From: an archaeon
Lineage (GTDB): Archaea > Nanobdellota > Nanobdellia > Pacearchaeales > DTIR01
Reading direction: 5' to 3'
Assembly: GCA_043799715.1 (NCBI GenBank)
Contig: JAZDNM010000007.1
Location: 21,265 to 85,264 of the forward strand
Length of the DNA: 64,000 nucleotides
Both the position numbers and the translations under genes were made by a program. Within the stretch, counting starts at the first letter, position 1. The number at the start of each line of letters is the position of its first letter. Below are positions 7,329-38,209 of this stretch, piece by piece. The notes below the pieces were generated by a model. It was not told where the DNA came from, ran no database searches, and was given only the letters and a program-made list of their open reading frames with translations.

Positions 7329-7715
7329 TCAGTAGAATCTCTGAACAAGCACAAGAAGCCCTGATTCGGGATTATACGCAATCTCAGCGCCAATATGAGC
7401 CCATGCTGGATTTATCATGTTATTCCAGTGGCTCTCATCAAAAGAAGAGATGATTCCGGATATGTGCCCTTCAAGCGAATCACTCCCTTTTGAGTATCCC
7501 ATGTTCTCTGATGCATACTCCCCTGAGAAAAATGGATTCGAATGCTTAATCTCCCAAATCCTGTGCTCTCCCCATTTCTGCATCTCCTCAAGAACATACT
7601 GTGCATGCTTCTGCGCAGCATCGCTATTTCTTTCATGGATAAACAAAGGATGCCTTTTGCACTCGCCTCTTTTAAAATTTGTATGGCTGAGTATAAAATA
7701 TCTTATATCACCCAT
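7329..7715 (-). CDS. CAP/SCP/PR-1-like domain protein
   Basis: 128 aa with the pattern ...SGEYASENMGY...GHISGIISSFDESHWNNMINPAWAHIGAEIAY...LVLVQRFY, typical of YkwD/CAP domains. No signal peptide is seen. Confidence 0.5.
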   Translation of the reverse strand: MGDIRYFILSHTNFKRGECKRHPLFIHERNSDAAQKHAQYVLEEMQKWGEHRIWEIKHSNPFFSGEYASENMGYSKGSDSLEGHISGIISSFDESHWNNMINPAWAHIGAEIAYNPESGLLVLVQRFY

Positions 7716-8174: not shown

Positions 8175-9281
8175 TTATTTTCCAGATTTAATTCTATTGT
8201 CGTGTTTACATAACATCTGACAATTTTCAGCTGTTGTTTTTCCACCTTCGTGCCAAGGAGTTATATGGTCTGCTTCCATTCCTTCTATTTCAAAATGTTT
8301 CTTGCATTTTGGGCAAATACCCTTCTGTTTTTCATATGCAATTCTTTTTTGTTTATCTGAGAAAGCACGAAGATTGAGATATCGCTCGTTTCTTGTTAAA
8401 ATATATAGATATATTCCTTTTTGGTTCGTAATCTCTTCATCTTGCATTAATCCAGCTATTTCTTTTTCTAGTTTTTTTGAATCTAATTTTTTGTTCTTAA
8501 ATTTATTATACAATTCGCCCCAATTAATACCTCTCATCTCTTTTCTGTAATTTGGAAAAATTTTCCTCACCCAGCTAATTACATTTTGGAAATATTCCCA
8601 TAATTCGTCTGCTTTTTTGTCGTGTTGATGTTTAGACATATATTCCTCTATCTTCTCATTGTTAATCCACGATAAAACCGTTTCTAAAATTTCTTGTCTA
8701 ATCGGAGAGCCATTTACTAGTTGTCCACCATCGCCAGCTAGAAGATATGCTGCACAATTTGTCTTACTAAATTTTAATTTGGCATCTGAAAGCCATGGTC
8801 CTGTGTATACTGCATTAAGAAGCTCTTGTTCAGTTAATTTTACTCCAGAGATATTCACGATTCTAAACCAATCCAATTTTTCTCTTTCTTTTCCTTCACA
8901 AAAATAAATCATTAATTCATATTCTAATATTTGACTTTGTTCGTCTTTTGTTAAGCTATGAAAATATTTCCCATTTATTGAAAAATCTCCAGCAACATAT
9001 TGAGCAATACTAATTGTTCTTTGTTGTCCGTCTAAAACTTCAAAATTCCCACCATCTTTTTTTACCCAATATATAATATTAAGTGGGAACTTTTTCTTGA
9101 CTGTTTCAATAACCTCATTTCTCTGTTTATCCTTGTATACAAATTCTCTTTGATATTTCGGACGAATATCTAGTTTTCCTTCATAAGCAGTTACGCCTTC
9201 TTCAGCACTATCTTTATAGTCCTTTACAACTTCTCTTATGGGAATCTTATGTAACTCTACTTTCATAAGATAATGAACCAA
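8175..9281 (-). CDS. DUF262 (ParB/GmrSD-type N-terminal domain) - HNH endonuclease fusion
   Basis: N-terminal KYQREFVY and LDGQQRT motifs mark the DUF262 domain. The C-terminal HNH is CPKCKKHFEIEGMEADHITPWHEGGKTTAENCQMLCKHDN. The first codon at 9281 is TTG and the first ATG is at 9266. Confidence 0.8.
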   Translation of the reverse strand: MVHYLMKVELHKIPIREVVKDYKDSAEEGVTAYEGKLDIRPKYQREFVYKDKQRNEVIETVKKKFPLNIIYWVKKDGGNFEVLDGQQRTISIAQYVAGDFSINGKYFHSLTKDEQSQILEYELMIYFCEGKEREKLDWFRIVNISGVKLTEQELLNAVYTGPWLSDAKLKFSKTNCAAYLLAGDGGQLVNGSPIRQEILETVLSWINNEKIEEYMSKHQHDKKADELWEYFQNVISWVRKIFPNYRKEMRGINWGELYNKFKNKKLDSKKLEKEIAGLMQDEEITNQKGIYLYILTRNERYLNLRAFSDKQKRIAYEKQKGICPKCKKHFEIEGMEADHITPWHEGGKTTAENCQMLCKHDNRIKSGK

Positions 9282-9291
9282 AAAGAATTAT

Positions 9292-10440
9292 TTAAACTTT
9301 CTTATTCTTAATAATTACACGGGCATAAATGCTTGAATATAGCTTTCCTGTCATTACATCCTTAAAAGAAGGAACCTTATCTATTTTGGGATTGTAATCA
9401 AGATATAATGTACCTTTTGCATTAACAGTAAATTTGCCTGTTGGTTTTCCATTTTTATCTAGAATTTCCATTTTTTTGTTACTCTTAAAATCAATTGAAC
9501 CAACTATACCTAGGGCAATAATTTCAAATTGTTCTGGATTATATTTATCTAAAAAAGTAATTGGTACACCAATTAATCCTTTATAGTCCATCGGAATTTC
9601 GCTCACTTTATCTACATTTATAGCATCATAATTATCATACTTTGGATACTCGTTAGGGCTATATTTTTTATACAAAGTTAGAAACTCCCTATGCTTTTCA
9701 ACATCTAAATTAGTAAACCAACAAGAAGTTGAAACTCTGGCAATTTTATTTCCTTTTTCATCTGTATGGTGAAATTGTTTCCAATCTTTTGGAACTATAA
9801 AAAACATACCCACATTAAAATTTGTATAACCTGTTCTAATTTTATTTTCCTTGAACAATTTAAAAATATCTTTGTAAGTTAAGGCATTTGTATTTCCTAT
9901 AATCAAAAATTTTTTATTATAGTCTATTAATTGAGTTAAATATTCTCTAAATAGGGAGAAAGGAGGATTAGTGCAAACTATGTCTGATTGTTTTAATAGG
10001 TCAATGCACTCTTTACTACGAAAGTCCCCTCCTTGTTTAAGAGGTGTTGCTGTATTTTCGTTATGTTTAAGCAACCATTCAACATCAGATATGCCAATTG
10101 AACCATCATTATTAGAATCTTCTACTTTGTTTATTTCAAGTTTAAATGCTTCTTTAGAATTGGCTTTTAACCCCTTTATATTAAACAAAGGTAATTGACT
10201 CCCAACAATTGGCGACCCAGAATAAGAAGTGGCAATAAGTTTTTTTAATTGGAAATTGTTGAAGTTAGCTGCAAAAAACTTAAAAAAATTACTTTCATAT
10301 GGGTCATCACAGTTACAATAAATTACTTTATCCTTAAATTGTGCCTTATAATGCCTTAACTCTCTCTCAATATCACTAATCTGTGTATAAAATTCATCTT
10401 TCTTTGATTTTTTAGCATTGTCAAAAAGTTTAGTAGCCAT
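9292..10440 (-). CDS. N6-adenine DNA methyltransferase, EcoRI-methylase-like family
   Basis: 382 aa with N-terminal KDEFYTQ and the catalytic motif IV DIVCTNPPFS. It lies 10-25 nt upstream of the nuclease gene on the same strand. Confidence 0.8.
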   Translation of the reverse strand: MATKLFDNAKKSKKDEFYTQISDIERELRHYKAQFKDKVIYCNCDDPYESNFFKFFAANFNNFQLKKLIATSYSGSPIVGSQLPLFNIKGLKANSKEAFKLEINKVEDSNNDGSIGISDVEWLLKHNENTATPLKQGGDFRSKECIDLLKQSDIVCTNPPFSLFREYLTQLIDYNKKFLIIGNTNALTYKDIFKLFKENKIRTGYTNFNVGMFFIVPKDWKQFHHTDEKGNKIARVSTSCWFTNLDVEKHREFLTLYKKYSPNEYPKYDNYDAINVDKVSEIPMDYKGLIGVPITFLDKYNPEQFEIIALGIVGSIDFKSNKKMEILDKNGKPTGKFTVNAKGTLYLDYNPKIDKVPSFKDVMTGKLYSSIYARVIIKNKKV

Positions 10441-10464
10441 GATTAATTATTGGTTTTCCCATTT

Positions 10465-11418
10465 TTATAAGTTTTGTTGTGCTAAATTTATTAATTCAAG
10501 CCATCTATTCGGTGTCTGAAATTTCAGTTCAGGGATAGCCAACTCGCTCGGCGTTTTTCCTTTCAGGGCTTCGTGCGGTTTTACAAAATTGTAAAATATC
10601 TCTATGCTTTTCATAATCGCATAAGCACTTTCAACAGAGCCGTGCATCCCTCTAAATCCAGTTGTTCTCTGTCTTATTGTGTTGTGCATCCTCTCAACCC
10701 AGATGTTAAATCCCTCATTCTTCCTTTGAGTGACTATTTTATGCTCTATCTTGTATTTTCTTGTGCGGTTGTCATAACCAAAAGTTTTCTTGACTGCATT
10801 TTCATAAGCGAGAAATCCGTCTGTCGTAACTATCTTGACTTGTTCGCCTGTCTTGTCTTTGATGTTTGACAGGACTTTCTTTAGGTTGTTTTGGCTTCTG
10901 CTTTTGACATAAGCGGAGTTAATCATGAATCTTGTCTTTACATCAATCCCATCTATAAACCAGTTCTTGTCCGTTCCTTTCCTTTTGTGGCTCTTTCTCC
11001 TGTGATACTCCATTTCATCAACTTCTATGTAGCTTCCTATCTGGACTTTCAAGCCATCTGTGTAATCAGCTATTTTCAAGCTGTATTTTCTAACCCATCT
11101 TAAAATGGTGCTGTGGTCAGAGTTGTGCGGAAAGAACGCCTTAAAGTGCTCCTGAACCCCTCTTGTGCTTAATCCCCTGCAAAACAGGTCTAAGGCACAA
11201 GTTATCTTCTGAGGGCTGTTTCGCATCCTAAAGAATGTGTCTCGTGGTATGAACCTCTTGAAGCATGATTTGCAGAAGTATCTTTGCCTCTTTCCGTGGG
11301 CTTCTGTCTGTTTGAATCCTCGCCTGACTACCTCTTTGCTTTGGCAGTGAGGACAAGCTATCTGTTGTTTTTCCATGATATATTCATGTACCTGAACTAT
11401 ATAAACCTTTCGGTACAT
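10465..11418 (-). CDS. IS6-family DDE transposase with N-terminal zinc finger
   Basis: Zinc finger CPHCQS...FCKSCFKRF. The DDE triad context is IEVDEMEY...WFIDGID, VTTDGFLAYENAV and VERMHNTIRQRT, followed by YNFVKPHEALKGKTPSE. An alternative start is M15 at 11376. Confidence 0.8.
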   Translation of the reverse strand: MYRKVYIVQVHEYIMEKQQIACPHCQSKEVVRRGFKQTEAHGKRQRYFCKSCFKRFIPRDTFFRMRNSPQKITCALDLFCRGLSTRGVQEHFKAFFPHNSDHSTILRWVRKYSLKIADYTDGLKVQIGSYIEVDEMEYHRRKSHKRKGTDKNWFIDGIDVKTRFMINSAYVKSRSQNNLKKVLSNIKDKTGEQVKIVTTDGFLAYENAVKKTFGYDNRTRKYKIEHKIVTQRKNEGFNIWVERMHNTIRQRTTGFRGMHGSVESAYAIMKSIEIFYNFVKPHEALKGKTPSELAIPELKFQTPNRWLELINLAQQNL

Positions 11419-11528
11419 GATTTCAAATAACCCATACTGTCTTATAAAACGCCTATTAATTACATAAAGACATAGTCATTTTGCTACAAACCGAAAGACT
11501 TAAATAGTATGGTTAATAATATAACTAT

Positions 11529-12293
11529 ATGGAAAACAAAATGAAAGAATATAACCTGAAACTACCAAGTAGTTCAATAGTCAATCTTAAGAGCAGTTGG
11601 GAGGTACTTAAGATTATTTCAAAGACAGGAAAAACGTTTACAGACAAAGATGTAGTAAAAAACGGCTCTCCAATAAATGAAAATAATCTTTTTAGGGTTC
11701 TATCTTATCTTAAATATTTAGGGCTACTCGTAGAAAAGAGAGAAAGAGAAGTGATTAACGGTAAAGAAGAGTCTGTTCAAAGATGGATGCAAGAAGATAA
11801 CAAAGATGTCACGGAATTTTTCTTTCTGTTAAGGGATAATAGAGAAGAAGAGGCAAAAAAGATTTTGATAGAATTAATTAAAAAACACGATTTGTTTTTA
11901 TCAATCAAAGATGAGCTGATTAACGGGCATCCTTCAATTACAGTTATAGATTTAAAAGATTTTTTTAGGAAGAAAATTCCAGAAAAAAGCCCAAGCTACT
12001 ATGATAATGGAATCAAATTTACAATAGATTTCTTATTGTTTTGCAAATTGATATTCACTGAAGGGAATATAATAAAGCTAAAAGAACAAGAAAGCAAACA
12101 TGAAGAAAAGAAAGAAGAACCACAAGGTAGGGAGCAAACCAACGAAGCTAAAAAAAATATAACTCTTGGCGAGAATAAGTATATCGTCTCTATTTTTGGA
12201 AAAAATACTAACTTTGAATTTCCTATTAATCAAAATTCAGATATAGAAGATGTTGAAGCTATATTAAACATAATAAGAAAGAAACTAACATAA
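11529..12293 (+). CDS. Hypothetical protein (possible N-terminal winged helix), island passenger
   Basis: 254-aa ORF with lysine/glutamate-rich composition. No catalytic motif is recognised. Confidence 0.5.
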   Translation: MENKMKEYNLKLPSSSIVNLKSSWEVLKIISKTGKTFTDKDVVKNGSPINENNLFRVLSYLKYLGLLVEKREREVINGKEESVQRWMQEDNKDVTEFFFLLRDNREEEAKKILIELIKKHDLFLSIKDELINGHPSITVIDLKDFFRKKIPEKSPSYYDNGIKFTIDFLLFCKLIFTEGNIIKLKEQESKHEEKKEEPQGREQTNEAKKNITLGENKYIVSIFGKNTNFEFPINQNSDIEDVEAILNIIRKKLT

Positions 12294-12714: not shown

Positions 12715-12861
12715 GCGGAGGTGCCGGAGCGGCCAAACGGGCTAGCCTTAGGAGAGAGCATTTCTTTTCAGAGAAAAGAAATGCTCGGCAAAGAAAAGCT
12801 TCAATAATCTCAGAAAGCTAGTGGCTTAGTGCCTGCATAGGTTCAAATCCTATCCTCCGCA
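12715..12861 (+). tRNA. tRNA-Leu (anticodon UAG) with 63-nt intron at 37/38 (12753-12815)
   Basis: Acceptor GCGGAGG/CCTCCGC, anticodon stem CTAGC/GCTAG, loop CTTAGG-intron-A, a long variable arm and T-arm ATAGG-TTCAAAT-CCTAT. The mature length is 84 nt. Confidence 0.85.
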
Positions 12862-12873: not shown

Positions 12874-15800
12874 TCACGCAAATGCGCTTATTGATTGGGA
12901 GATGGCTGAAGCAAGCTGGATTTTTTCAGATTCCTGGGAAATTTTTTCCATATCATCCTTGTTGCAGATGAATGCAGGTTCTGTAAGCACAGCAGGCATG
13001 TTTGTGTTCTTGAGAACATACAGGCTGCCTTCTGCGGCTTCTGTGTCAGGCTTGATGCCCCTGTCTTTCACACCCAAACTGGCTACAATATTCTCCTGGA
13101 CTATCCTGGCAAATTCCTTTCCTTTTGTGGAAGTTCTGTAATAGAATGTTTCGGCTCCATTCGCAGAGCAGTACTTTCCATCAACATCCAATGATGCAGA
13201 ATTCATGTGAATGCTGACAAAGATATCCGCTTCAAAATCATTTGCGATTTTTACTCTTGAAGCAAGAGAAACAGCAGCGTCAGTTTCTCTGGTCATTTTT
13301 ACGCTGTATCCTTTTTCTTCAAGCACGCTCTTTAATTTTTCTGCTATTGCCAGATTCATGTCTTTTTCATTTACTCCGTCGCTGTTTACAGCGCCAGGGT
13401 CTGTTCCGCCGTGCCCCGCATCTATCACAATCTTCTTGCTGGCACTCTGGGCTGCTGCAGCGGCAGCAGCTGCGTTTGCTTGTTGGCTTGATGAAGCAAT
13501 ATAATAATATGCTTTCCCGATTTTCTTTACATATGCCTTTGCGCTGTCCCCATTCTGTTTCAAGAAGGGATTCTTGCAGGAGGAAATATCCTTGCTGCAG
13601 TATGTTGAAACATAAGTAGGGCCTTCCTTGTAAGCTGCAATAGCAAGCCCGATATTGCTGAACCTTCTCATATTGCAGGCGAGATATGCTATGCCGCCCT
13701 GGATGTTCTGCTCTGTATTGTACTTGTTTATCGACAGTATCCCCATTGTTTTTGCGCATGCCCCGCCATTCTTGAAATCATTCACAACTGTGTCCTTGAG
13801 CTGCATCAAGCCGTAAGCGCCTGTGCTTGACTGCTCCTTTACATCCCAGCTGCTTTCAACTTCTATGAATGCCCTTGCAAGATTAAAATTCACATCATAC
13901 TGCTTTGCATATTTGTCAATGAGAATATAAATTGCCTGCCTGCTCTGGAATGTGCTTTCAGATTTTGAATTCAGCATATCAGAGGCGCTGTAATCTTTTC
14001 TTATTATAATGCAAATCTCGCTGTTTGAAACCGCAGCGCCTGTTATCCCGGAATTATCTGCATCAATATCTATGCAGACAACATTATCAGGGGTTTCAGT
14101 GTTCTCAGAACCCTCAACTAAATTTTTTTTTTCCTCAGAAACAATGCATTTTGAGCCAGTCCACTGGCAGTTCTCAACAGAGCATTTGTTGCTCTCGCAT
14201 TCAATCTGGTTGTTAAAATTAGAGCATTCCATGCCATCTTCGCAATTAAGGCACGCTGCCTTGATTAATCCCTTTTGAATGTAGCATCTGCCTAATTCAT
14301 GGCATTCACTGTAACTACAGGTATTGAAAATGCCGTCGCTGCATGAAACGCAGTTTGCCTTGATTGTTCCAGGGCTTATTTTTGTGATTTCAGCCACTTC
14401 TTTCTTTGATGTTTTTTCAAGCTGTATGCTCGCCACATTCTCACGATACTTTGCGACCACTAAAGTCATAAGAAGATAATCCCCACTTTCATCCAAATCA
14501 AACTGCTGCTGAATATTCATTTCCAAAATTATTTCCCTGCCGCCAAGTGAGATTTTTGCACCATCTTTCACTGACAACTCCTTCAGCAAAATAGGATACT
14601 CCTTGCTGTTGAATGAAAGAATCTTTTCTGTATTGAGTTCCAAATCAGTGTACTCTGTGCTTGATTCCTTTATCTCGGTTGCCTCAACAGATTTCTTTTT
14701 TTCTGAAGAAACAAGACTCTTTTCTATTTTTGCCTTGAAAATCAATGTTGTTATTCTGTCAAATATCTCAGCAAGCCCTATTCTTGCCTGCGCTTTGTCC
14801 TGATTAAACAAGGATTTCAGGATTATATTCTCATATTGCCCTGTCACATTTGCTATTGCGCTGTTTATTTCCTGCGCTGTTTTGTCTGCTGTGTAGGACT
14901 TGCCGACAATGAGCTTTTCAAGAATTCCATTGTCTTTTGTCAGTTCATACTGTTTCTGGCTTACCTCTGCAAGCAAAGCCTGGCTTCCAGAGTGATCAAG
15001 CATGCTTGTATTCTGCAATGTTGATGCCAGTTCCTTTGCTTTTGCAAGAGTCTCGGAAAGCAAGCCCTGGTCTGTAAAGCTCTGATTTAGCGAGAGAGTA
15101 TCAAGCCAGCATATTATTTTCTTGTCAGTGCAATAGCCCACCTGTTTCCATCTGTCTGGCTGTGTTGTCAGGCTCGGGTTGTCTGTTGTGCACACTCTGA
15201 TAATGCCTAAGCTTGAAATTGACGGGGATAATGCTGATTCCACAGATGACTGCAGATTTAATGATGAAACTGATACAATCCCTGATGTCCCTGCTATGCA
15301 TTCCTGCTCTGTTTTTACCTGCTGCGCTGCCTGCGCAGCAAGATAAGAGTCCTGCAGTTCATTCATGAAATAGGATGTTGTAACCTGCCCGAAGCCGCAT
15401 TCCTCCTGCGCATTTATCTTTACGCATAATTCTGTATATCCTGAAGGCCCTGTGAAATCAACTGACTTGTCAACCTGCTCGCCTTTTGCAATGTAGCCGA
15501 CTGCATTAGGCACAGCCATCTGCTGCATCTGCGCATAATATTCTGTCTGCGGCGACCCTTTCAGATACACATTGTAGTAAGCCCCTGCATCCTTGCCTGC
15601 ATAAATCCTGTAATAAACTTTGTAATGGGATGTTGAAGGCACAGTCGCCTCTGAAAGAATATTCGAGGAGAATGTTGCGTGGAACTGCACAGGGCTTTCA
15701 GGCTCGAGAAGTGAATCGAACATGTCTGATGTTGTTGGATATCTTGCAGAGACCCATGCCTTGCAGATTTCTGTTCCTGCCGCCTCTGTGCTTCTTGCCT

Positions 15801-18800
15801 GGAATGCATTAAAAGCATTTGCGCCATAATAATTTGTAAAGTAATTCACTGAGTCCTGCGCTTTCTGCCATGAGTCCTGCACAAACAGATACTCCCCTCC
15901 GCCGCGCGCGGTGCTTTTTCCTGACATGGTTTCAAGCAGCGACGGAATTCCAACCTTGGCTAAAGGCGCTGCCTGCTTCCAGAAAAATTCGCATAGATAA
16001 ATGGATTTAATCTGGTCGCAGATCCCCACATTTCTGCCTGTTGCAAGATTTTCCTGAAGGCAGTCCCTGACTGCTTTCTGTATCATCACAAAATTATCCA
16101 ATCCTGCATGAACCCCTGTAAGGCAGATTGGAACAATTATCCCCTCTCTTGCATTCGGCAGGCACAGCGCAATGCTGCCTATGATTCCTGTCTGCACAAC
16201 ATCTGCAACAGGATACTTGCCCCCAAAATCGCATCTTGATGAAGGGCATAAAACAGGGTCGCATAAATTAAACATTGTATGGCAGTCTTTTGGTGACATG
16301 AAATCCTCGCATTCATACTGGGGAACTGTAACTGCAGGCTTTCCTCTTGAAAATGACTGCCCTCCAACAGATATGCCTCCTTTGTTCTTGTACTGCCTTG
16401 CAGCTTCAAGCAGATACTGCCTTGCGAGTTTTATCATGTCTGCTGAATTGGGTATTGATGAATAGGTATTTTCAGACATTCCTGTCTGCATGCTGAATTG
16501 AATGCACGGCTTGTCATCCCCATGCCCTGTTGATTCCCATTCTTCCAAGCCATCGCCATTAACATTGCAAATCCAGTAGCTTACAGGCATTCCTGATTCA
16601 GTGTAGGATTTTGTGCTTGAAGTGCCTAAGCTGGATGGCTCGGTTGCGGCATACCATCCGTCTTTTGCATATTTGCCAAGAGGGAGTATGGCAGGCAGCC
16701 CTGCATAAGAGCCTGTCTCCCAGAATTTTACAGCAGGATTTTTGTAAGGATTTGAATATGTTGATGCTGCTGTTATTTCAGCGTATGAAGTTCCAAGGCT
16801 GCTTAAGATTTTTCTCTTGTTCTCCCCTGCAAGTTCATCTCCTATTTTCAATGCACCACTACTGCTAGAGATTTCATAAATTTTAGAAAAGCTGTAGCCC
16901 TGCCCGATAGAATCAAGCACTGCTATATAACTGATGCCCTGCGCAGTGAAAACCGCTGCTTTCTGCCCCTGCGAGATGCTGACGCCCTGCATTTTGCTGT
17001 AATCAGCTTCCTTGACAATATTTTTGTCAGAGAAGGATATTGCCTTGCTCTGGTCCCCTACAAGGGTGCTTTCAACATCTATCCCTGCTGCCTGGAAGAT
17101 ATTTGTTGCTTCTGTGCTTGCCTTGGTGGTTGTTAAAATCTTGTTCCAGTAATTTGCATCATCATAAAGCTTCTGCTGCGAAGCCTGGCACATTGCATCA
17201 GACAGCTTTTTATCAGTACATGCCTGCTGCATTTCAAGATTGAACAATGAATCCCTTACATCAGTTGATGAAAGATAATTCTTGTCCTCAAGAACCTTAA
17301 TATTCCCCTCGCTGAAGACATCCCCTGCTTTCAGCTCAGTGCCATCCCTTGACTTGAATGTAACATCCTTGTACTCATCAAAATATGTCTGGGATTCCTG
17401 GACATATTTTTCCTGGTTTACATATTCCTCTCCGAATGCTCCAAGAACTCCCTCTTTCTTTTCAACAACACCTGCGGTTTTCTTTATTGTGTCTGCTTTG
17501 GAATTTACATTCTTGTAAATGCCCTGTATTGTGCTGACAGAGCTGTCAATTGCGTCTGCATTCTTGTAATAGCAGTCATGGAATGTGCTGTATTTGCCTT
17601 CTGCAACCCCTGACTGGCATATTGGCTCCCAGTATTTCATTGCCTCTGTTCTCGCAAGGCTGCTGCCGCTGCCTGCACCCAGATTATTGAAGAAATTTTT
17701 CACAACAAAATATGCGCTGCCAGCAAAGCATGTGCCTTTCCATACCTTAATGATACTCCCAAGATTATCAACAATCTTCTCCCATTTTGCAATTGAATCG
17801 TTAAGCTCGCTTATCAATTCCTGGGTTTTTTCAGTGCTGAGCTGTATCGACCTTTTCTCAATCCCAATCTTAAATGTGAAATTTGCCTGTGTCTGGGCTC
17901 TTGCAATCATTGGAGAGATAGTCACTGATGCATCTTTTTTCAGGTTTATCTTGCTGACTCTCAAGTCAACTAAGATTTCTTTTGAGGCATCCTTTACAGA
18001 AAGCTTCACTGAATCTTTTTCCTTTACTTTCACTGTAATCGGGTTGCCAGCCTTGTTTTGATAGGAAAATTCAACATAATCCTCTGCAATGCTCAAAACA
18101 GACAATGTCCCTGAGACTGCCTCGTTCTCGCTGTAAGCTTCTGTATTGCCATTAACCATCAAGTCAGCGGACTTCTCGTCCCTGCTCACTTCCTTTATGT
18201 CCTCAAGAACAGCATAATAGCTTCCGCTTGAGGCAGAGATGAATGCTGAAGACAAGCTTAAATCGTGGATTTTCATCAGCTCAAGCTGCTGGCTTGCCTG
18301 TTCTGCGATTCCTGAGCCAGAATAGTCCTTTGCAATCCTGTTAAGCAAATCCTCCTGTGTCTTGAACTTTTTCAAATTTCCAGCAAGCTCTGCTGCCTTG
18401 TACAGCGCATCAGCGCCGTAATATTCCGGCTTTGCACCTTCCTGCTGGGATTTTTTCTCAGAACCATACTGCTCTGAAACTTTTTTGTAATCAGCCAAAG
18501 ATTCAGAGAAATATTCCTCAAGAAGTTTGCCAAAATCATCAGAGTTGTAATTTTTTTCAACAGAGCCTGTCAGCTTGTCAAATGTGAAATAATAGTCCCA
18601 GACAAAAGTGCCCTGCCCTGTTTCCGACGCTGTAATAATCCTGAATTCCGCGTCCTTTCCGAGATAATCTTTGAGCCCTTTTTCAACGCTTGTGTCGCAG
18701 CCGCTCAGGCATTTGATATCCTCTCCAAATTTTGAAGAGCCTTTAATCAGTGTGCTGAATATGTTGAAAAGCGAGTACTTCTTGCCTTTCAGGAGGCTGT

Positions 18801-20052
18801 TTACTACTATATTGAAGTTGTCGAAATAATCGCTCTTTATTGTGTCTGCCTTGACAATCACAACAAAATCCTGATTGAGATTTTTTAGATAAGAGGAAAT
18901 TGCATTTGATGTGCTGCCGATATATGCAAGATATACATTCTGCCCTGAAACAATCTTGTCTCCTGTCTTGAATTCATTTGATGCAATCTCATTCTTTGCA
19001 GAGTCCCTGATTGTCAATCTTGCTTTTGGAGGGTCAATTGAGAGAGTTGTCGGCTGTGAGTCCTTGCAGTTTACTGTCACCTTTCCTCCGCCGACAATAT
19101 TCTGCTCTATATTTGAAATCCAGCATTCATCATCCAAAAATCTCTGCCCTTTTGAAAGCCATAATTCATCGTCGCCAATCCTCACCTTTGCCTTCATTTC
19201 CGGATAGTTGATGCTGTTCAGATTAACTTTCAGCGCAGCAGAGCAATAGTATCCGGGCAGATAGATTTCATTTGAACTCTGCCCTGCCCTTAATGTAACA
19301 GAAGTCAACTGAGTTACTGCATCAGTGTATATCGCAATCTTAACATATTCTCCTGCAGAATCTTTTCCTATCTCCAATGCCCTCAAATACGCCTTTCCGT
19401 TCCAGAATGAATACATTTTGTAATATTGTTTCCATTCCTCCTCGCTCAGCACAGGCAGCAGGAATCCTGCTTTCCCAACTCCAAACGCTTTTTCTGCATT
19501 ATACTGTATCAGGGCTGTTAAATTTGCCTCAACCCACTCAGTCATATTCTTTTCAATCGGCTGATTTTTTAATATCACAACAAGATACCCCAGATTATTC
19601 AATACAGGGCTGCCGAGCAGCTGGGTTCCCCATGTTGTCAGGGCTGCTCTTGCAGGATGAAATCCTATCCCTGCAATATCTTTTGACAACTGCTGCCCCT
19701 TGAATGAGATTGATGTTATTTCAGGGACTTCTATCAAAGGATTAATTTTTATTCCAGTAAGCTGGCAGAAAACCGGGACATCCTGCTCCTCAAGCAAATC
19801 GCTTCTGACAACTGCAGGCGAACAGCTTCCAGGCAAAATCTGCAGGATGAAATCCTGCCTTGCGAGGCACTGCTCCTGGCTGAATGCAGGCCAGTATGTA
19901 TCAATTGAATTTGAGTAATATGAAAGCGGAGAAGGGGAATAGCTGTATGTTGCTGCATATGCTGCTGCAGAGATTATTGCTGCAAAGAAAATGAAAGCAA
20001 AAGCTAACAGTATTCTGCATTTGCCTATTTTAATCAAATCTGTTTTTCTCAT
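12874..20052 (-). CDS. Giant secreted protein (2392 aa) with C-terminal lytic transglycosylase (SLT/GH23) and N-acetylmuramoyl-L-alanine amidase (Amidase_3) domains
   Basis: N-terminal signal ...LLAFAFIFFAAIISAAAYA. SLT motifs are FIEVESSW, GAYGLMQL and AIAAYKEGP (about nt 13501-13938). An Ala8 linker follows. Amidase_3 motifs are IVIDAGHGGTDPGA, VSIHMNS and GAETFYY (about nt 12877-13437). A 12-Cys module lies at about nt 14140-14358. Confidence 0.9.
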   Translation of the reverse strand: MRKTDLIKIGKCRILLAFAFIFFAAIISAAAYAATYSYSPSPLSYYSNSIDTYWPAFSQEQCLARQDFILQILPGSCSPAVVRSDLLEEQDVPVFCQLTGIKINPLIEVPEITSISFKGQQLSKDIAGIGFHPARAALTTWGTQLLGSPVLNNLGYLVVILKNQPIEKNMTEWVEANLTALIQYNAEKAFGVGKAGFLLPVLSEEEWKQYYKMYSFWNGKAYLRALEIGKDSAGEYVKIAIYTDAVTQLTSVTLRAGQSSNEIYLPGYYCSAALKVNLNSINYPEMKAKVRIGDDELWLSKGQRFLDDECWISNIEQNIVGGGKVTVNCKDSQPTTLSIDPPKARLTIRDSAKNEIASNEFKTGDKIVSGQNVYLAYIGSTSNAISSYLKNLNQDFVVIVKADTIKSDYFDNFNIVVNSLLKGKKYSLFNIFSTLIKGSSKFGEDIKCLSGCDTSVEKGLKDYLGKDAEFRIITASETGQGTFVWDYYFTFDKLTGSVEKNYNSDDFGKLLEEYFSESLADYKKVSEQYGSEKKSQQEGAKPEYYGADALYKAAELAGNLKKFKTQEDLLNRIAKDYSGSGIAEQASQQLELMKIHDLSLSSAFISASSGSYYAVLEDIKEVSRDEKSADLMVNGNTEAYSENEAVSGTLSVLSIAEDYVEFSYQNKAGNPITVKVKEKDSVKLSVKDASKEILVDLRVSKINLKKDASVTISPMIARAQTQANFTFKIGIEKRSIQLSTEKTQELISELNDSIAKWEKIVDNLGSIIKVWKGTCFAGSAYFVVKNFFNNLGAGSGSSLARTEAMKYWEPICQSGVAEGKYSTFHDCYYKNADAIDSSVSTIQGIYKNVNSKADTIKKTAGVVEKKEGVLGAFGEEYVNQEKYVQESQTYFDEYKDVTFKSRDGTELKAGDVFSEGNIKVLEDKNYLSSTDVRDSLFNLEMQQACTDKKLSDAMCQASQQKLYDDANYWNKILTTTKASTEATNIFQAAGIDVESTLVGDQSKAISFSDKNIVKEADYSKMQGVSISQGQKAAVFTAQGISYIAVLDSIGQGYSFSKIYEISSSSGALKIGDELAGENKRKILSSLGTSYAEITAASTYSNPYKNPAVKFWETGSYAGLPAILPLGKYAKDGWYAATEPSSLGTSSTKSYTESGMPVSYWICNVNGDGLEEWESTGHGDDKPCIQFSMQTGMSENTYSSIPNSADMIKLARQYLLEAARQYKNKGGISVGGQSFSRGKPAVTVPQYECEDFMSPKDCHTMFNLCDPVLCPSSRCDFGGKYPVADVVQTGIIGSIALCLPNAREGIIVPICLTGVHAGLDNFVMIQKAVRDCLQENLATGRNVGICDQIKSIYLCEFFWKQAAPLAKVGIPSLLETMSGKSTARGGGEYLFVQDSWQKAQDSVNYFTNYYGANAFNAFQARSTEAAGTEICKAWVSARYPTTSDMFDSLLEPESPVQFHATFSSNILSEATVPSTSHYKVYYRIYAGKDAGAYYNVYLKGSPQTEYYAQMQQMAVPNAVGYIAKGEQVDKSVDFTGPSGYTELCVKINAQEECGFGQVTTSYFMNELQDSYLAAQAAQQVKTEQECIAGTSGIVSVSSLNLQSSVESALSPSISSLGIIRVCTTDNPSLTTQPDRWKQVGYCTDKKIICWLDTLSLNQSFTDQGLLSETLAKAKELASTLQNTSMLDHSGSQALLAEVSQKQYELTKDNGILEKLIVGKSYTADKTAQEINSAIANVTGQYENIILKSLFNQDKAQARIGLAEIFDRITTLIFKAKIEKSLVSSEKKKSVEATEIKESSTEYTDLELNTEKILSFNSKEYPILLKELSVKDGAKISLGGREIILEMNIQQQFDLDESGDYLLMTLVVAKYRENVASIQLEKTSKKEVAEITKISPGTIKANCVSCSDGIFNTCSYSECHELGRCYIQKGLIKAACLNCEDGMECSNFNNQIECESNKCSVENCQWTGSKCIVSEEKKNLVEGSENTETPDNVVCIDIDADNSGITGAAVSNSEICIIIRKDYSASDMLNSKSESTFQSRQAIYILIDKYAKQYDVNFNLARAFIEVESSWDVKEQSSTGAYGLMQLKDTVVNDFKNGGACAKTMGILSINKYNTEQNIQGGIAYLACNMRRFSNIGLAIAAYKEGPTYVSTYCSKDISSCKNPFLKQNGDSAKAYVKKIGKAYYYIASSSQQANAAAAAAAAQSASKKIVIDAGHGGTDPGAVNSDGVNEKDMNLAIAEKLKSVLEEKGYSVKMTRETDAAVSLASRVKIANDFEADIFVSIHMNSASLDVDGKYCSANGAETFYYRTSTKGKEFARIVQENIVASLGVKDRGIKPDTEAAEGSLYVLKNTNMPAVLTEPAFICNKDDMEKISQESEKIQLASAISQSISAFA

Positions 20053-21938
20053 TTGAATGAAATATCAATTCCGCTTTCTTCAGCCAGAATGTATGCGCTC
20101 TGCAATTCATCAACACTCTTGGGAGTTTGTATGTATGAGGCCGTAATGCTCATTTTCCTTGAATTTGCGAGAATACTTGCTGTTAAATATTCTGCCCTGC
20201 TTCCTCCTCCTGATATAACCTGTGAAAGAGTCTGCGCAGGCAGCTCTATATCATAGCATTGTTCATTCTGGAATCCGAAAAAGCCTGCTATGCCCCTTGC
20301 AGGAGCTTTAACGCACTGCTGTGTCTTGTAGCTGGCAATTTCAATTTTGCCCTGCCTGAAAATCTGCACAGAAATATTGTAATAGCCCTCTTTGAGCTGG
20401 ACTGTTTTCTGCAGAGGATACATAATACTTTCAGTCTCGTCCCCTGAATCAAATGTTATGAATGCCTGCTCGTCTTTTGACAATGGAACCCCGCCTGCAT
20501 TCACATCAAGCGTTAAATTATACAATGGCTGCATCACAATTTCTGCGCTGCCCTCCTGATTTGTGCTGAACTGCAGTTTTGCATCAGCATATCCTGCTGC
20601 CGAGGCAATGATAAAACCGTTAACGCACTGGGGAAATTTCCCTTCAAGCTCTGCTGTTGCCCCGGAAATTTTTGTCCTGCCAATCTCACACTCCTCATTG
20701 AAGCACTTTAATTTTATGTCTGCCTCAACAGGCTCAAGCCCTATATCAAATGTTGAAACTTTTACAGGAGTTGTCTTGTATTTGCATAATTCGGATTCTT
20801 GCTGCTGCGTAATCTCGCTTAATACAGCGTTTCTTGGCATGTTCTTGCTTATCACAACAAGCACTGGAAACTGGAAAAACTCTGATTCATCAAAAATCTG
20901 GATTAAAACAGGGAATGCAATATCATAAACAAAATGGTACTGGACATAGCAGAATCCAAGAATCCCCAAACCCTGCTGCATTCCGATTGGCTTTGCAATA
21001 AGCATCTCCCCATTATCGCTTTCTTCAGAATCCCCTGAAACCTCAAACCTCATCGGGAAACTGCTTGAGTACATGAAGTTAATATTTTCAGAAACCCTCG
21101 CTGCATTGTCAACAACAAAATACTTGTTTCTTGAGTCAGCAAGGCTGTAATAACTGCCCTTGAGCTTCAATGATGCGATGTTTGCTGAAACAGCATTCTG
21201 CAAGTCCTGCATTATCCCTGATTTCAGCCATGTTTTCGGCGCGCAGTTCAGCTCAACATCGCTTACAGGGGCATAAAGGCTGAGCACATCAATTGTGTAG
21301 TTCTCAAGGAACAGTTCATCCTGCTGCTGGTTATAGATTTTGACAGCAAGATTGTAGAACTTTCCAAGATTGCTTTTTATCTCTGCTCTGTGCCTTGAAA
21401 GTTTTGCTTTAGTATTCCCCTTGCTGACTACAAGCCCTGCATCAACCTCCGCTGAGATCATGCTATCCTTGATGCTTACTGATGCCTTTGCATTTTCCCG
21501 CGCAACAGAATATCCCTGCAATTCAAAATCTGAAAAGCTGCATTTTGCAATCTCTTCCTGGATATACTGGGCAAGCTGTTTTTGCATTTCTGCAATAGAA
21601 GGCACCTGCTGCCTTGCGATGTTGTTTCCTGAAATGTAAAACCAGTAAGGCACTGCATTGCCAAAGAAATCAAGCTGGGAGGAGAAGGGCATATAGGAAG
21701 AGCCTTTTTCAAATGAGGGGGGATAAATATATCCTGCCTGCGCTCCAAGCATTGCACTTCCTTCCTGAAGCTTTTCCTTAATGCATCCTGTAAAATAATT
21801 TTCAATCGGCTGAAATTCAGCCGGAACTGCAGTTGGCATGCTTCTCAAATAATAGAAAAGCCCGACTGAGCCGACTATCAATACGGAGATTATAACAAAA
21901 ATCGTAACCTGTGCTTTTTTGTTCTTTAAAGTGTTCAT
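20049..21938 (-). CDS. Hypothetical 629-aa protein with prepilin-like (class III) signal, translationally coupled to the giant gene
   Basis: The start is chosen at MNTLKNKKAQVTIFVIISVLIVG (21938) because the longer ORF start at 21995 would include TATA-like sequence. Its stop overlaps the giant gene ATG as ATGA (20049-20052). Confidence 0.7.
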   Translation of the reverse strand: MNTLKNKKAQVTIFVIISVLIVGSVGLFYYLRSMPTAVPAEFQPIENYFTGCIKEKLQEGSAMLGAQAGYIYPPSFEKGSSYMPFSSQLDFFGNAVPYWFYISGNNIARQQVPSIAEMQKQLAQYIQEEIAKCSFSDFELQGYSVARENAKASVSIKDSMISAEVDAGLVVSKGNTKAKLSRHRAEIKSNLGKFYNLAVKIYNQQQDELFLENYTIDVLSLYAPVSDVELNCAPKTWLKSGIMQDLQNAVSANIASLKLKGSYYSLADSRNKYFVVDNAARVSENINFMYSSSFPMRFEVSGDSEESDNGEMLIAKPIGMQQGLGILGFCYVQYHFVYDIAFPVLIQIFDESEFFQFPVLVVISKNMPRNAVLSEITQQQESELCKYKTTPVKVSTFDIGLEPVEADIKLKCFNEECEIGRTKISGATAELEGKFPQCVNGFIIASAAGYADAKLQFSTNQEGSAEIVMQPLYNLTLDVNAGGVPLSKDEQAFITFDSGDETESIMYPLQKTVQLKEGYYNISVQIFRQGKIEIASYKTQQCVKAPARGIAGFFGFQNEQCYDIELPAQTLSQVISGGGSRAEYLTASILANSRKMSITASYIQTPKSVDELQSAYILAEESGIDISFK

Positions 21939-22022: not shown

Positions 22023-22158
22023 TGAGCCCGACAGGATTCGAACCTGTGATCTTCTCTATTCTGAGTTTCTTCTCGGTTTTTCTCTTTCCGAGGTTTCTCT
22101 TTTTCTAAAAGAGAAAACTCACGTCAAAGAGACGTCTTAACCACTGGACTACGGGCTC
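22023..22158 (-). tRNA. tRNA-Val (anticodon GAC) with 63-nt intron at 37/38 (22059-22121)
   Basis: Acceptor GAGCCCG/CGGGCTC, anticodon stem TCTCT/AGAGA, loop TTGACG-intron-T and T-arm ACAGG-TTCGAAT-CCTGT. Confidence 0.85.
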
Positions 22159-23679: not shown

Positions 23680-23797
23680 AGCCTCCAGCAGGATTTGAAC
23701 CTGCGACCCTCTGTTTTTTTAGTTTTCTTTTCCGAGGTTTTCTTCCCAAGAAAAGCTCTTACAAAACAGATGCTCTAGCCAACTGAGCTATGGAGGC
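23680..23797 (-). tRNA. tRNA-Thr (anticodon UGU) with 44-nt intron at 37/38 (23716-23759)
   Basis: Acceptor GCCTCCA/TGGAGGC, D-arm GCTC-AGTTGGCTA-GAGC, anticodon stem TCTGT/ACAGA and T-arm GCAGG-TTCAAAT-CCTGC. Confidence 0.85.
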
Positions 23798-37321: not shown

Positions 37322-38209
37322 ATGGATGCGATTTTTTTTGCTGATGTTCTGCTCGCTTCAATAGCCCTTATCTGGCTTTTTGCCGCGGCTATTCAGGACA
37401 TGAAAAAAAGAGAGGTTGCAAACTGGCTGAATTTCTCGCTTGTTGCAATTGCGCTTGCAATAAGGGCGATTGTGTCTGTTGTTTCATCTGATGCAGGATA
37501 TTTCATTTATGGAATTGCAATGACTCTGATTTTTTTTGCAATAGCAAACCTGTTCTATTACGCCAGAATTTTTGCAGGAGGCGACGCCAAAATGCTTGTA
37601 GCCCTCGCAGCTGCATTTGCAACAACTCCTGTTTTTGTCTCAAGCAGCGTAACATCAATAGGAAATATCCAGATTCCATTTATGGCGGTGTTTGTGCTTA
37701 ATATGCTGTTCGCCGGCTCTGTTTACGGGATTTTATGGAGTGCTGCCCTCGCAGCAAAGAACTTTAAAGAATTCATAAAAGAATTCAAAAAATCCAGCAG
37801 ACAAAACAGGCTTGTAAGAATAATCTTCTTTCTGCTTTTTGCTATTGTGCTTTTAATCTGCTTTTATGTAAAGGACATAATTCTGCTGATTATCGCCCTT
37901 TTGGCGCTGGCATTTCCCTACTTGCTGATTTTTGTCAAGGCTGTTGAGAATTCATGCATGGTAAAAAGCATCAAGGCATGCCAGCTTTCAGAAGGGGACT
38001 GGCTTTACAAAGCAGTGAAAATCGGAAAAAAGAGCATAATGCCAAGATGGGAAGGGCTTAACAATGCGGAAATATCACTGATAAAAAAATCAGAAATAAG
38101 AAGAGTGATGATAAAGCAGGGCATACCATTTGTTCCTGTTTTTCTTCTTGCGCTTATAATAAGCTTCTTCGCAAATTTGCTTGTTGTTCTTGTTGGTATT
38201 ATCGGATAA
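37322..38209 (+). CDS. Archaeal prepilin/preflagellin peptidase (A24 family, PibD/FlaK/EppA-like)
   Basis: A polytopic membrane protein with the two catalytic Asp contexts AAIQDMKKREV and AGGDAKML. A CTTATAAAT box sits at -28. Confidence 0.8.
   Translation: MDAIFFADVLLASIALIWLFAAAIQDMKKREVANWLNFSLVAIALAIRAIVSVVSSDAGYFIYGIAMTLIFFAIANLFYYARIFAGGDAKMLVALAAAFATTPVFVSSSVTSIGNIQIPFMAVFVLNMLFAGSVYGILWSAALAAKNFKEFIKEFKKSSRQNRLVRIIFFLLFAIVLLICFYVKDIILLIIALLALAFPYLLIFVKAVENSCMVKSIKACQLSEGDWLYKAVKIGKKSIMPRWEGLNNAEISLIKKSEIRRVMIKQGIPFVPVFLLALIISFFANLLVVLVGIIG

Follow-up and report, generated by a model that had tools for sequence, protein, structure and literature searches.

The 64,000-nucleotide stretch of archaeal DNA analyzed here (the window) carries a gene whose product is, judging from its sequence, probably a Sec-exported protein built of two parts, a core and a variable tail. 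We consider it probable, at roughly 60%, that this giant protein acts as a scaffold on the cell surface, possibly in association with a pilus, and brings murein hydrolases to bear on bacterial walls. An earlier note on this DNA had proposed a surface-exposed or secreted weapon or docking device directed at a bacterial wall. The archaeal origin of the protein, its export signal and its intact hydrolase domains agree with that proposal, but the N-terminal region is not specific to a weapon.

The giant reading frame and its export signal

The giant open reading frame starts with ATG, has zero internal stops and encodes 2,392 aa followed by a stop codon. The protein is identical to P0001, the NCBI MAG protein "N-acetylmuramoyl-L-alanine amidase [archaeon]" from a 98-kb contig.

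12874..20052, minus strand: giant open reading frame (reading-frame check and 100% identity to P0001)
19954..20052, minus strand: predicted Sec-type signal peptide, aa 1-33, with an AYA↓A site (hydrophobicity peak and V-x-A of the family)

The uninterrupted frame with a Sec-type signal described in the earlier note was borne out, and every motif quoted there was found where it had been placed. The N-terminus (MRKTDLIKIGKCRILLAFAFIFFAAIISAAAYA↓A, the arrow marking the predicted cleavage) has a charged start and a putative A-x-A cleavage site. The hydrophobicity profile has its highest peak in the whole protein at aa 14-32, and a V-x-A site is retained in the consensus of the giant family. No membrane or surface anchor of its own was recognizable in the hydrophobicity profile of the giant protein, so it could simply be released.

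An archaeal contig and a syntenic locus

The window encodes the archaeal markers S3Ae, S8e, S15, TFIIB, RadA, tRNA-intron endonuclease, SRP54/FtsY, Nre, Alba and Gins51 together with five intron-bearing tRNAs. The earlier note had raised a bacterial contig and assembly chimerism as weaknesses to be checked. The contig is clearly archaeal by its ribosomal proteins, TFIIB and other markers and by its intron-bearing tRNAs, and six further sequences, each recovered independently, have the same fusion of core, SLT and Amidase_3 (P0002, P0003, P0005, P0006, P0013 and L003). The locus is chromosomal and syntenic, with the order S3Ae ... partner-giant ... S8e/TFIIB/MBL/tRNA-intron endonuclease/HIT, and on this gene order it is not an island. 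The partner-giant pair has tRNA genes on its flanks; downstream of the pair, and outside it, is an IS/restriction-modification island.

It is extremely improbable that the gene is an artefact, whether through a bacterial or chimeric contig, misjoined hydrolases, or a virus or mobile-element gene encoding a tail-associated lysin. Such an origin would fit the neighboring tRNA genes and island and the matches of the hydrolase domains to phage endolysin and lytic tail PHROGs. However, archaeal markers lie on either side of the gene, the six other sequences have the same fusion, the locus is syntenic with that of relatives with the island outside the pair, and the core had neither a viral structural match (N-terminal model against BFVD) nor a PHROG match. 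A mobile-element or viral origin of the giant gene was rejected on the synteny with relatives.

A conserved core in Pacearchaeota and Woesearchaeota

The first ~1,700 aa form a sharply bounded core that is common to the lineage, Pacearchaeota/Woesearchaeota-type DPANN archaea. At least 551 GTDB species genomes contain the core, almost all of them carrying a Pace-, Woese- or Nanoarchaeota label, and the family forms ~1,000 clusters at 50% identity. Matches to aa 1240-1660 were found in 1,008 cluster representatives, and the family boundary is sharp because 894 of them scored E<=1e-30. When 8,000 candidates were scored, 612 proteins had E<=0.001, mostly 1,750-2,700 aa long and without a Pfam domain. 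Most of the 120 best matches were 35-60% identical over about 85-90% of aa 1-2031, and across the ~1,700-aa core the giant protein is homologous to proteins of Pacearchaeota/Woesearchaeota. Among 120 homologues conservation was concentrated at aa 51-350, 700-800 and 1100-1650, and the sequence was variable beyond ~aa 1700, where alignment occupancy dropped from 0.91 to 0.22.

19003..19902, minus strand: N-terminal block of the core, aa 51-350, beta-strand-rich (conservation and AF2)
17653..17955, minus strand: helical block, aa 700-800, the "FKIGIEKR...KGxCF" region (conservation, consensus and AF2)
15073..16755, minus strand: central core domain, aa 1100-1660 (column identity up to 74%)
15703..16323, minus strand: best-conserved stretch, aa 1244-1450, Cys-rich and partly hydrophobic (conservation, hydrophobicity and consensus)

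Column identity to the giant protein in the N-terminal block was 0.29-0.64 per 50-aa bin at an occupancy of at least 0.92 (120 homologues). This block was modelled by AF2 at a pLDDT of ~80, and the N-terminal half of the core was predicted to be a chain of beta-sandwiches. In the central domain numerous Cys are invariant and two helices, at aa 1280-1323, are moderately hydrophobic; identity exceeds 50% across the best 150 representatives. The input alignment for AF2 held 35 sequences, which probably limited model quality, and aa 1244-1450 were modelled only as helices of low confidence. Because this best-conserved stretch was modelled at pLDDT<50, the predicted structure lends no mechanistic support.

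Searches of Pfam, NCBIfam and PHROGs gave zero matches in the giant protein outside SLT and Amidase_3. Foldseek comparison of two AF2 models to the PDB gave a best E>0.005 and none at E<0.001, the sub-threshold matches being ApaG/FnIII-like beta-sandwiches, complement-like multi-sandwich noise and YbgF/CpoB-type TPR. The N-terminal model had no match in BFVD, and the family profile matched PDB sequences only in a TPR-like segment at E>0.01. The ~1,900 aa in which the earlier note had seen no recognizable motif are indeed free of Pfam matches, but they are no orphan region, as ~1,700 aa of them are the core of a strongly conserved family. The suggestion that this long N-terminal region is the delivery module of a weapon was not borne out. 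Because the core is lineage-wide (at least 551 species) and ~87% of members are without a peptidoglycan hydrolase, its primary function must be independent of murein.

Alternatively, core and partner could make up an S-layer-like or other surface lattice, with the hydrolase tail a late, lineage-specific decoration that would say little about the role of the family. The presence of the core in at least 551 species-representative genomes, at a syntenic locus beside housekeeping genes, is consistent with an envelope component, as are the identities of 35-60% for the core and ~45% for the partner and the predicted chain of beta-sandwiches in the N-terminal half, as in many surface proteins. The central domain is, however, far more conserved than usual S-layer proteins, and we regard the lattice as clearly unlikely. 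It is compatible with the surface-scaffold explanation and not opposed to it.

Two intact hydrolase domains in the C-terminal tail

14353..15072, minus strand: start of the tail, aa 1661-1900, helical stalk and small beta region (fall in occupancy; AF2)
14146..14352, minus strand: Cys-rich module, aa 1901-1969, 12 Cys in 69 aa (sequence)
13591..13923, minus strand: SLT (family 1 lytic transglycosylase), aa 2044-2154 (PF01464, E=2.4e-15)
13450..13473, minus strand: Ala8 linker, aa 2194-2201 (sequence)
12886..13431, minus strand: Amidase_3, aa 2208-2389 (PF01520, E=3.9e-55)

Pfam HMM searches confirmed the SLT and Amidase_3 domains that the earlier note had placed at the C-terminus, both above their cut-offs, and the 12-Cys cluster and the Ala8 linker between the two domains were also present as it had described. 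The SLT domain (PF01464, GH23) scored 56.6 bits over profile positions 2-107 of 117, where the gathering score is 21.3. Its catalytic Glu in IEVESSW (aa 2063-2069) aligned with Glu478 of Slt70, and the GLMQL and AYKEGP motifs were present. The Amidase_3 domain (PF01520) scored 187 bits against a cut-off of 27 over profile positions 1-173 of 174. The zinc ligands H2214, E2229 and H2282 and the catalytic residue E2358 (H in DAGHGG, E in NEKD, H in SIHMNS and E in LTEPAF) aligned with those of CwlV and Cwp6, relatives in the PDB with E down to 6e-28. These residues were kept in 14 of 15 archaeal copies, including that of the window, the exception being L057, which has Asp for the Glu ligand. Missing catalytic residues had been a concern of the earlier note; the SLT Glu and all amidase zinc ligands and the catalytic Glu are in place.

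The nearest relatives of the amidase were CwlD/CwlV-like enzymes of Bacillota and phage endolysins, and the hydrolase domains matched phage endolysin and lytic tail PHROGs. Assignment as a CwlD orthologue was rejected, as the TIGR02883 equivalog score was 137.7 bits against a cut-off of 221.55, and the domain is CwlD-like only. The profile scores, the catalytic residues and the closest amidase relatives show two intact hydrolase domains of bacterial type. The Cys-rich module is a mosaic accessory that occurs in tails with and without hydrolases. It was rejected as a docking element tied to the hydrolases, being also found in hydrolase-free tails and absent from several hydrolase tails.

SLT and Amidase_3 enzymes act on MurNAc-containing murein. 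Because an archaeal protein with an export signal carries two intact murein hydrolase domains of bacterial type, extracellular murein would be its naturally inferred substrate. Pseudomurein was set aside as a target on the MurNAc-murein specificity of these enzymes and on evidence from a published survey, in which archaeal peptidoglycan hydrolases were not concentrated in pseudomurein producers (PMC12352652).

The same domains could serve as a bacteriolytic toxin in competition, with no symbiosis involved. Bacteria-killing archaeal peptidoglycan hydrolases are documented and their homologues are prominent in Nanoarchaeota (PMC12352652), and endolysins and autolysins are the types nearest to the amidase. 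Such a weapon is nevertheless very unlikely: Gram-negative murein is out of reach from outside for unaided Amidase_3/SLT, Pfam recognized no cell-wall-binding domain (SH3, LysM, CWB, PG_binding) in the giant protein, and the module is carried by a lineage-wide scaffold of housekeeping-like character and does not lie in a toxin/immunity locus.

An optional tail and its variants

A peptidoglycan hydrolase was present in only ~13% of core family members (14 of the 120 best homologues and 10 of 77 complete GTDB loci), always within the variable C-terminal tail, and ~87% of members had none at the locus. On this sequence comparison the hydrolase tail is an exchangeable accessory on the core scaffold. 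A bacterial target cannot be generalized to the family because ~87% of its members are without a hydrolase.

The syntenic locus L002 represents a split variant, in which a separate 414-aa SLT+Amidase_3 gene lies downstream of the giant gene. Its product has its own hydrophobic N-terminus and shares 43% identity with the window module along its full length. Among the sequences compared here, the tandem of SLT and Amidase_3 recurred only in archaeal relatives, namely P0121 and P0122, the two nearest matches that are free-standing, the L002 gene and the fused giants. In a neighbor-joining tree of the amidase domain, the archaeal sequences fell into four clusters among those of Bacillota type. The bacterial sample for this tree was biased towards matches to the window protein, and the tree did not separate a single acquisition from several.

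A partner gene with a prepilin-type signal

20049..21938, minus strand: partner gene, 629 aa (ATGA overlap with the giant gene, class III signal)
37322..38209, plus strand: type IV prepilin leader peptidase, Peptidase_A24 (domain match; context only)

In the window the TGA stop of the partner gene overlaps the ATG of the giant gene (ATGA). The partner (~625 aa in relatives) was found directly upstream on the same strand in 65 of the 66 loci with room for testing, and it is 42-52% identical in L001 and L002. NCBIfam and PHROGs gave no match in the partner. Its N-terminus, KKA↓QVTIFVIISVLIV (NKKA↓QVTIFVIISVLIVGSVGLFYYL), is by sequence a class III (type IV prepilin-type) signal, defined by a short basic N-terminus and a [KR]-[GA]↓Q motif followed by ~20 hydrophobic residues. 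The N-terminal consensus of 56 orthologues was K[RK]G↓QVTIFIIIAIVIVA, in which Q, F, I and A are invariant and T is near-invariant. A class III-like N-terminus can also serve as a plain membrane anchor. The window also holds pilin-like ORFs and a T2SSE ATPase, and the Peptidase_A24 product could process the signal of the partner.

The partner bears on a further alternative, scavenging, in which the protein or a tail released from it by proteolysis digests the murein of dead bacteria or free wall fragments and so provides amino sugars as well as amino acids for an auxotrophic archaeon that has no specific host or prey. This is a minor but real possibility. The hydrolase domains are intact and come with an export signal, and no anchor was detected in the giant protein. 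Muramoyl-tetrapeptide carboxypeptidase is abundant in Pacearchaeota, and peptidoglycan of dead cells has been proposed as an amino-acid source (PMC11537232). For a diffusible enzyme, however, it would be odd to mount two small catalytic units on a scaffold of 2,000 aa that is coupled to a pilin-like protein, and the free-standing version in L002 retains a hydrophobic N-terminus, suggesting cell association. No murein-salvage genes were seen within the 64-kb window, a small part of the genome.

Proposed mechanism

In the surface-scaffold explanation, the core is encoded at a conserved chromosomal locus and appears to be translationally coupled to the ~625-aa partner with the prepilin signal. 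The tail in the sub-lineage of the window carries a helical stalk, a Cys-rich knot, the lytic transglycosylase and Amidase_3. The giant protein would be exported and then held at the cell surface via the partner, which may be anchored in the membrane by its N-terminal helix or be part of a type IV pilus-like filament. We infer surface retention and the interaction of the two proteins only because their genes are coupled. The C-terminal tail would point outward, and at a bacterial sacculus the amidase would strip stem peptides from MurNAc while the transglycosylase would cut the MurNAc-GlcNAc bond. Local thinning of the wall could then allow attachment, penetration or the release of wall material.

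Relation to known systems

The interpretation in terms of a bacterial wall is not new. Castelle et al. 2021 described Pacearchaeota/Woesearchaeota proteins of up to 3,000 aa with SLT that were predicted to be extracellular, and proposed attachment to bacterial hosts (PMC8204110). Earlier descriptions include AR20 (Castelle 2015), the "large lytic murein transglycosylase" was described by Vigneron 2022 (PMC9723730), and related points were made by Vigneron 2022 and Strock 2025. The hypothesis of extracellular murein is thus already published (PMC8204110; also PMC9723730, PMC11537232 and PMC12352652). The giant protein very probably belongs to the published giant family, probably "fam00969" of PMC8204110, the basis for this equivalence being the lineage, the size and the SLT domain given in that description. 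According to the passages on the SLT giants, they share with the window protein the lineages, the size class (up to ~3,000 aa), predicted extracellular location, SLT and a proposed role in binding or degrading the walls of bacterial hosts. They are described there through SLT, whereas SLT and/or Amidase_3 occurred in only ~13% of the core family here, and the window member adds Amidase_3. Those passages make no mention of the conserved core, the coupled prepilin-signal partner or the split-gene variant. New here are the extent of the core, the ~13% share of hydrolases, the split variant and the partner with its prepilin signal.

The window domains have folds, catalytic Glu, zinc ligands and signature motifs in common with Slt70-type transglycosylases and CwlV/CwlD/Cwp6-type amidases. 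Unlike bacterial and phage peptidoglycan hydrolases, they occur in an archaeal host, have no recognized wall-binding domain and terminate an unrelated scaffold of ~2,000 aa. VirB1-like hydrolases of conjugation and type IV secretion and phage virion-associated lysins or tape-measure proteins breach walls locally from large structural carriers. The window protein may be a functional analogue of these, as a lytic module on a large structural component that opens murein at a contact point, but its scaffold is non-homologous, its gene is chromosomal and lineage-wide, and no secretion-system or virion genes are nearby.

PilY1/PilC and minor pilins form tip complexes with a large adhesin on bacterial type IV pili. 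By analogy, the giant protein would be a large secreted non-pilin encoded with a prepilin-signal protein, in a genome with a prepilin peptidase, pilin-like proteins and a T2SSE ATPase. It is not homologous to PilY1/PilC, its partner is of unusually large size (~600 aa), and the two genes lie outside a pilus locus. The SPEARE proteins of nanohaloarchaea are giant proteins implicated in prey or host interaction. The same was proposed for the "Archaeovorins" of Omnitrophota, some of which have SLT (bioRxiv 10.1101/2023.11.21.568195). Both resemble the window protein in being very large, in belonging to ultrasmall cells that depend on a host or are predatory, and in joining adhesion-like regions to degradative enzyme domains. 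No sequence relationship to either was detected for the giant protein, which is much smaller than Archaeovorins and differs from both in its single conserved non-repetitive core and dedicated partner gene.

Implications for the family

We know of no host for any Pacearchaeota or Woesearchaeota. The main argument from genomes for bacterial partners is the occurrence of murein hydrolases on a giant exported protein. It is already in the literature and bears on the question of whether any DPANN archaeon lives on bacteria. More speculatively, and with a fairly low probability, the partner-giant pair could be the conserved host-contact organelle of Pacearchaeales/Woesearchaeales, a pilus-tip or surface-anchored scaffold whose exchangeable tail sets the attachment target. 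If so, lineages with SLT/Amidase_3 tails, fused or split, would live on bacteria, the ~87% of members with other tails would be directed at different surfaces, archaeal S-layers for example, and the very highly conserved, Cys-rich and partly hydrophobic central domain would provide a step shared by all, for instance membrane contact or the formation of a channel. The hydrolases are a swappable tail of a two-protein module that runs through the lineage, and whether a tail is present, and of what type, could mark host type in genomes. The partner-giant pair gives imaging, pull-downs and structural studies in enrichment cultures a definite target, and the core is a large, sharply bounded family without a structural relative whose fold and function would be new biology.

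A giant archaeal gene predicted to end in two murein hydrolase domains

The giant gene (window 12874-20052, minus strand) starts with ATG and runs unbroken for 2,392 codons. The encoded protein has a basic start followed by its strongest hydrophobic segment (aa 14-32) and an AYA/A site, and a V-x-A site is kept in the consensus of the family. This bears out the single ORF with a Sec-type signal described in the earlier note, which had also correctly placed the Ala8 linker, a 12-Cys stretch (aa 1901-1969) and every motif that it quoted. Pfam returned exactly two domains in the protein, the two that the motifs had indicated, each far above its cut-off:

aa 2044-2154: SLT, PF01464 (E=2.4e-15; 56.6 bits, cut-off 21.3)
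aa 2208-2389: Amidase_3, PF01520 (E=3.9e-55; 187 bits, cut-off 27)

In the SLT domain the Glu of the VES motif aligned to Slt70 Glu478, the catalytic residue, and both GLMQ and AY(K)EGP were found. In the Amidase_3 domain the His/Glu/His zinc ligands and the catalytic Glu matched those of CwlV and Cwp6. These amidase residues were complete in 14 of the 15 archaeal copies compared, the window copy included; the exception, from locus L057, carries Asp at the position of the Glu zinc ligand. Judged by its residues, the gene is intact with an export signal, and its C-terminal extremity consists of two catalytically complete murein hydrolase domains. The NCBI entry for the protein itself, on a 98-kb contig, reads 'MAG: N-acetylmuramoyl-L-alanine amidase [archaeon]'.

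The giant gene is flanked on either side by archaeal marker genes, and those in the window comprise ribosomal S3Ae, S8e and S15, TFIIB, RadA, tRNA-intron endonuclease, SRP54, FtsY, Nre, Alba and Gins51. Rfam identified five tRNA genes of 93-147 nt, two of which bracket the giant gene and the 629-aa ORF directly upstream (the partner):

2296-2388, plus: tRNA
12715-12861, plus: tRNA
22023-22158, minus: tRNA
23680-23797, minus: tRNA
30314-30422, plus: tRNA

ARAGORN missed three of the five and reported the other two as tRNA-??? with no amino acid; all five are presumably intron-bearing. The gene order (S3Ae, partner-giant pair, then S8e, TFIIB, a metallo-beta-lactamase-fold protein, tRNA-intron endonuclease and HIT) is common to L002 and largely so to L001 (a 1.36-Mb contig), two GTDB loci with relatives of the giant gene. 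The locus is chromosomal and the gene pair lies outside any mobile element. The fusion of core, SLT and Amidase_3 recurs in six further sequences recovered independently (P0002 at 60% identity, P0003, P0005, P0006, P0013 and GTDB locus L003 at 59%), and a chimeric assembly of the giant gene is therefore very unlikely. The checks on the refuting conditions named in the earlier note all left its observation standing. Between the giant gene and S8e, an inserted island of about 4 kb (8175-12293) breaks the synteny seen in L002:

8175-9281: GmrSD_N+HNH nuclease
9292-10440: EcoRI-type adenine methylase
10465-11418: IS transposase with InsA zinc ribbon and DDE domain
11529-12293: unassigned 254-aa ORF

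Between the island and S8e, a 128-aa ORF (7329-7715, minus) gave a weak CAP/cysteine-rich secretory match (E=1.6e-4, barely over the gathering score). Near the right end of the window, a tyrosine recombinase (58739-59575, minus; Phage_integrase, E=5.6e-43) and a small P-loop NTPase (62873-63547, minus; weak Zot/nSTAND3) may form a second mobile element. In L001, positions 1-5401 upstream of S3Ae, partner and giant gene hold two successive gene pairs, each of about 1,000 aa (weak Disintegrin) then about 188 aa, which may be another surface-protein cassette.

A conserved core family with a variable tail

Searching with aa 1-2031 of the giant protein retrieved 612 proteins at E<=0.001 among 8,000 candidates scored. 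The best 120 of the 612 were nearly all 1,750-2,700 aa long, 33-60% identical and mostly without a Pfam domain, and came from MAGs of Pacearchaeota, Woesearchaeota or Nanoarchaeia. When one genome was scanned for each GTDB species, core relatives occurred in at least 551 genomes, and among the matches listed all but two were labelled Pace-, Woese- or Nanoarchaeota or plain archaeon. HMMER with aa 1240-1660 against 1.84 billion cluster representatives gave 1,008 matches at E<=1e-3, 894 of them at E<=1e-30. The family has sharp limits, and no remote relatives are visible.

Alignment of 120 members showed conserved blocks at aa 51-350, 700-800 and 1100-1650, many invariant cysteines in the core, and a peak column identity of 74% at aa 1251-1300. 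Beyond aa ~1700 occupancy and identity collapse, and the tail, counted from aa 1660, ranges from 108 to 1,034 aa, so the family consists of a core of about 1,700 aa and a variable tail. The earlier note had seen no recognisable motif in some 1,900 aa; Pfam was indeed empty there, but the region is not an orphan and holds the conserved core of a lineage-wide family.

AF2 modelling of aa 34-1110 from a 35-sequence alignment (pLDDT 74, pTM 0.50) gave a row of beta-sandwich domains together with a helical bundle and long helices. In the model of aa 1100-2040 (pLDDT 58), confident beta domains flank aa ~1244-1450 (nt 15703-16323). No part of the family is more conserved than this stretch, which has up to 74% column identity, about 12 invariant Cys and two moderately hydrophobic helices. 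It was also the worst modelled, with low-confidence helices at pLDDT<50; possible reasons are a shallow alignment, a fold that depends on the partner, or a region that is metastable or interacts with membranes. Neither model matched the PDB at E<0.001, the N-terminal model, the one run against BFVD, had no match there, and the family profile found only a weak TPR-like segment among PDB sequences, leaving the core without a recognisable relative. A primarily structural envelope role for this conserved core, though compatible with a surface scaffold, seems rather improbable.

A coupled partner with a prepilin-type signal

The TGA stop codon of the partner ORF (20049-21938, minus) shares bases with the giant ATG (ATGA), and the two genes are translationally coupled. 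Of the 66 loci with room for an orthologue, 65 have one directly upstream in the same orientation; the copies in L001 and L002 show 42-52% identity. The one locus without a detectable partner there, L027, has two core-matching ORFs, so its giant gene may be split or rearranged. The partner family search gave 1,647 proteins at E<=0.001, of which the best 120 were 608-668 aa long with identities mostly near 45%; every one is annotated as 'hypothetical', and none has a Pfam domain. The N-terminal consensus of 56 orthologues, K[RK]G/QVTIFIIIAIVIVA, in which Q, F, I and A never vary and T hardly does, is a classic archaeal class III (type IV prepilin-type) signal. Elsewhere in the window three regions (37322-38209, 42188-45714 and 48298-52738) resemble components of a type IV filament system:

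37322-38209, plus: Peptidase_A24 prepilin peptidase
42188-45714, minus: six small ORFs in a row (123-303 aa), N-termini prepilin-like, no Pfam match except glycine zipper
50447-52738, minus: T2SSE-type ATPase, 763 aa
within 48298-52738, minus: unannotated 742-aa ORF beside the ATPase

The hydrolases are an accessory tail

SLT and/or Amidase_3 occurred in 14 of the 120 best homologues, each time within the tail (precomputed Pfam and our own searches), and iterated HMMs detected a hydrolase at 10 of 77 GTDB loci with a complete giant ORF (13%); both samples are biased to proteins related to that of the window, so across the whole family the share may be lower. Eight of these loci have a fused SLT and two a fused amidase (L003 has both, giving nine fused loci); in the tenth locus SLT is encoded by a gene of its own. 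In L074, a record labelled Aenigmarchaeum, the giant gene is followed by a stand-alone SLT gene of 258 aa. In a neighbour-joining core tree the SLT+Amidase_3 forms and two split forms cluster in the window's subclade, and the SLT-only and amidase-only forms are scattered. In the syntenic L002 the giant gene stops after a Cys-rich module and is followed by a 414-aa SLT+Amidase_3 gene that has a hydrophobic N-terminus of its own and shares 43% identity with the window module along the full length. Fusion in one genome and adjacency in another is classical evidence of a functional link.

The nearest free-standing relatives of the module, P0121 and P0122, have the same two-domain layout, and P0122 is probably on the same archaeal contig as the giant homologue P0018, the contigs of the two being equal in length. 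Next nearest for the amidase were Bacillota enzymes (Mahella, Terribacillus, clostridial autolysins; 40-46% identity), and it was also close to CwlD (score under the CwlD cut-off) and phage endolysins. A crude amidase-domain tree was compatible with one or several acquisitions. Locus L057 (DAOTCN010000002.1, 379-kb contig) is labelled 'Candidatus Paceibacterota bacterium' yet has the archaeal partner-giant pair with a fused Amidase_3, and a second Amidase_3 protein (988 aa) just downstream; the label or the binning of this record is probably wrong.

Proposed function

SLT and Amidase_3 act on MurNAc-containing murein. To our knowledge, archaea except the pseudomurein producers have no such substrate themselves. 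We favour, at a probability of roughly 60%, a surface scaffold presenting murein hydrolases. The giant protein would be retained at the surface via the partner, membrane-anchored or in a pilus-like filament, with its C-terminal tail pointing outward; on contact with a bacterial sacculus the amidase would strip stem peptides and the transglycosylase would cut glycan strands. The earlier proposal of a weapon or docking device aimed at a bacterial wall is partly supported, by intact murein hydrolase domains on a protein with an export signal; the purpose may be host docking, predation, competition or feeding on wall debris. A giant protein that is purely a scavenging enzyme seems unlikely, and one that is a competition weapon very improbable.

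The headline claim of a murein-targeting giant protein is already in the literature. Castelle et al. 2021 describe a 'fam00969' family with proteins up to 3,000 aa and credit earlier sightings to Rinke 2013 and Castelle 2015 (PMC8204110). Vigneron et al. 2022 argued for predatory Woesearchaeota from a 'large lytic murein transglycosylase' (PMC9723730), and a 2024 chimney study made the same argument for Pacearchaeota (PMC11537232). The inference of the earlier note thus amounts to a rediscovery of a published hypothesis. Strock et al. 2025 report peptidoglycan hydrolases in about 5% of archaeal genomes, prominent in Nanoarchaeota, and show that some of these enzymes kill bacteria (PMC12352652). 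Within the compared portions of the published accounts, the accessory status (~13%) of the hydrolase tail, the giant protein's Amidase_3 beside its SLT, the existence of split as well as fused forms, and the coupled prepilin-signal partner are absent; other literature may have them.

The giant family bears on the question of the hosts of Pace- and Woesearchaeota. The partner-giant pair might serve these archaea as a conserved host-contact organelle whose tails are exchangeable, a tentative idea to which we give a low chance; if true, the type of tail would encode the type of host.
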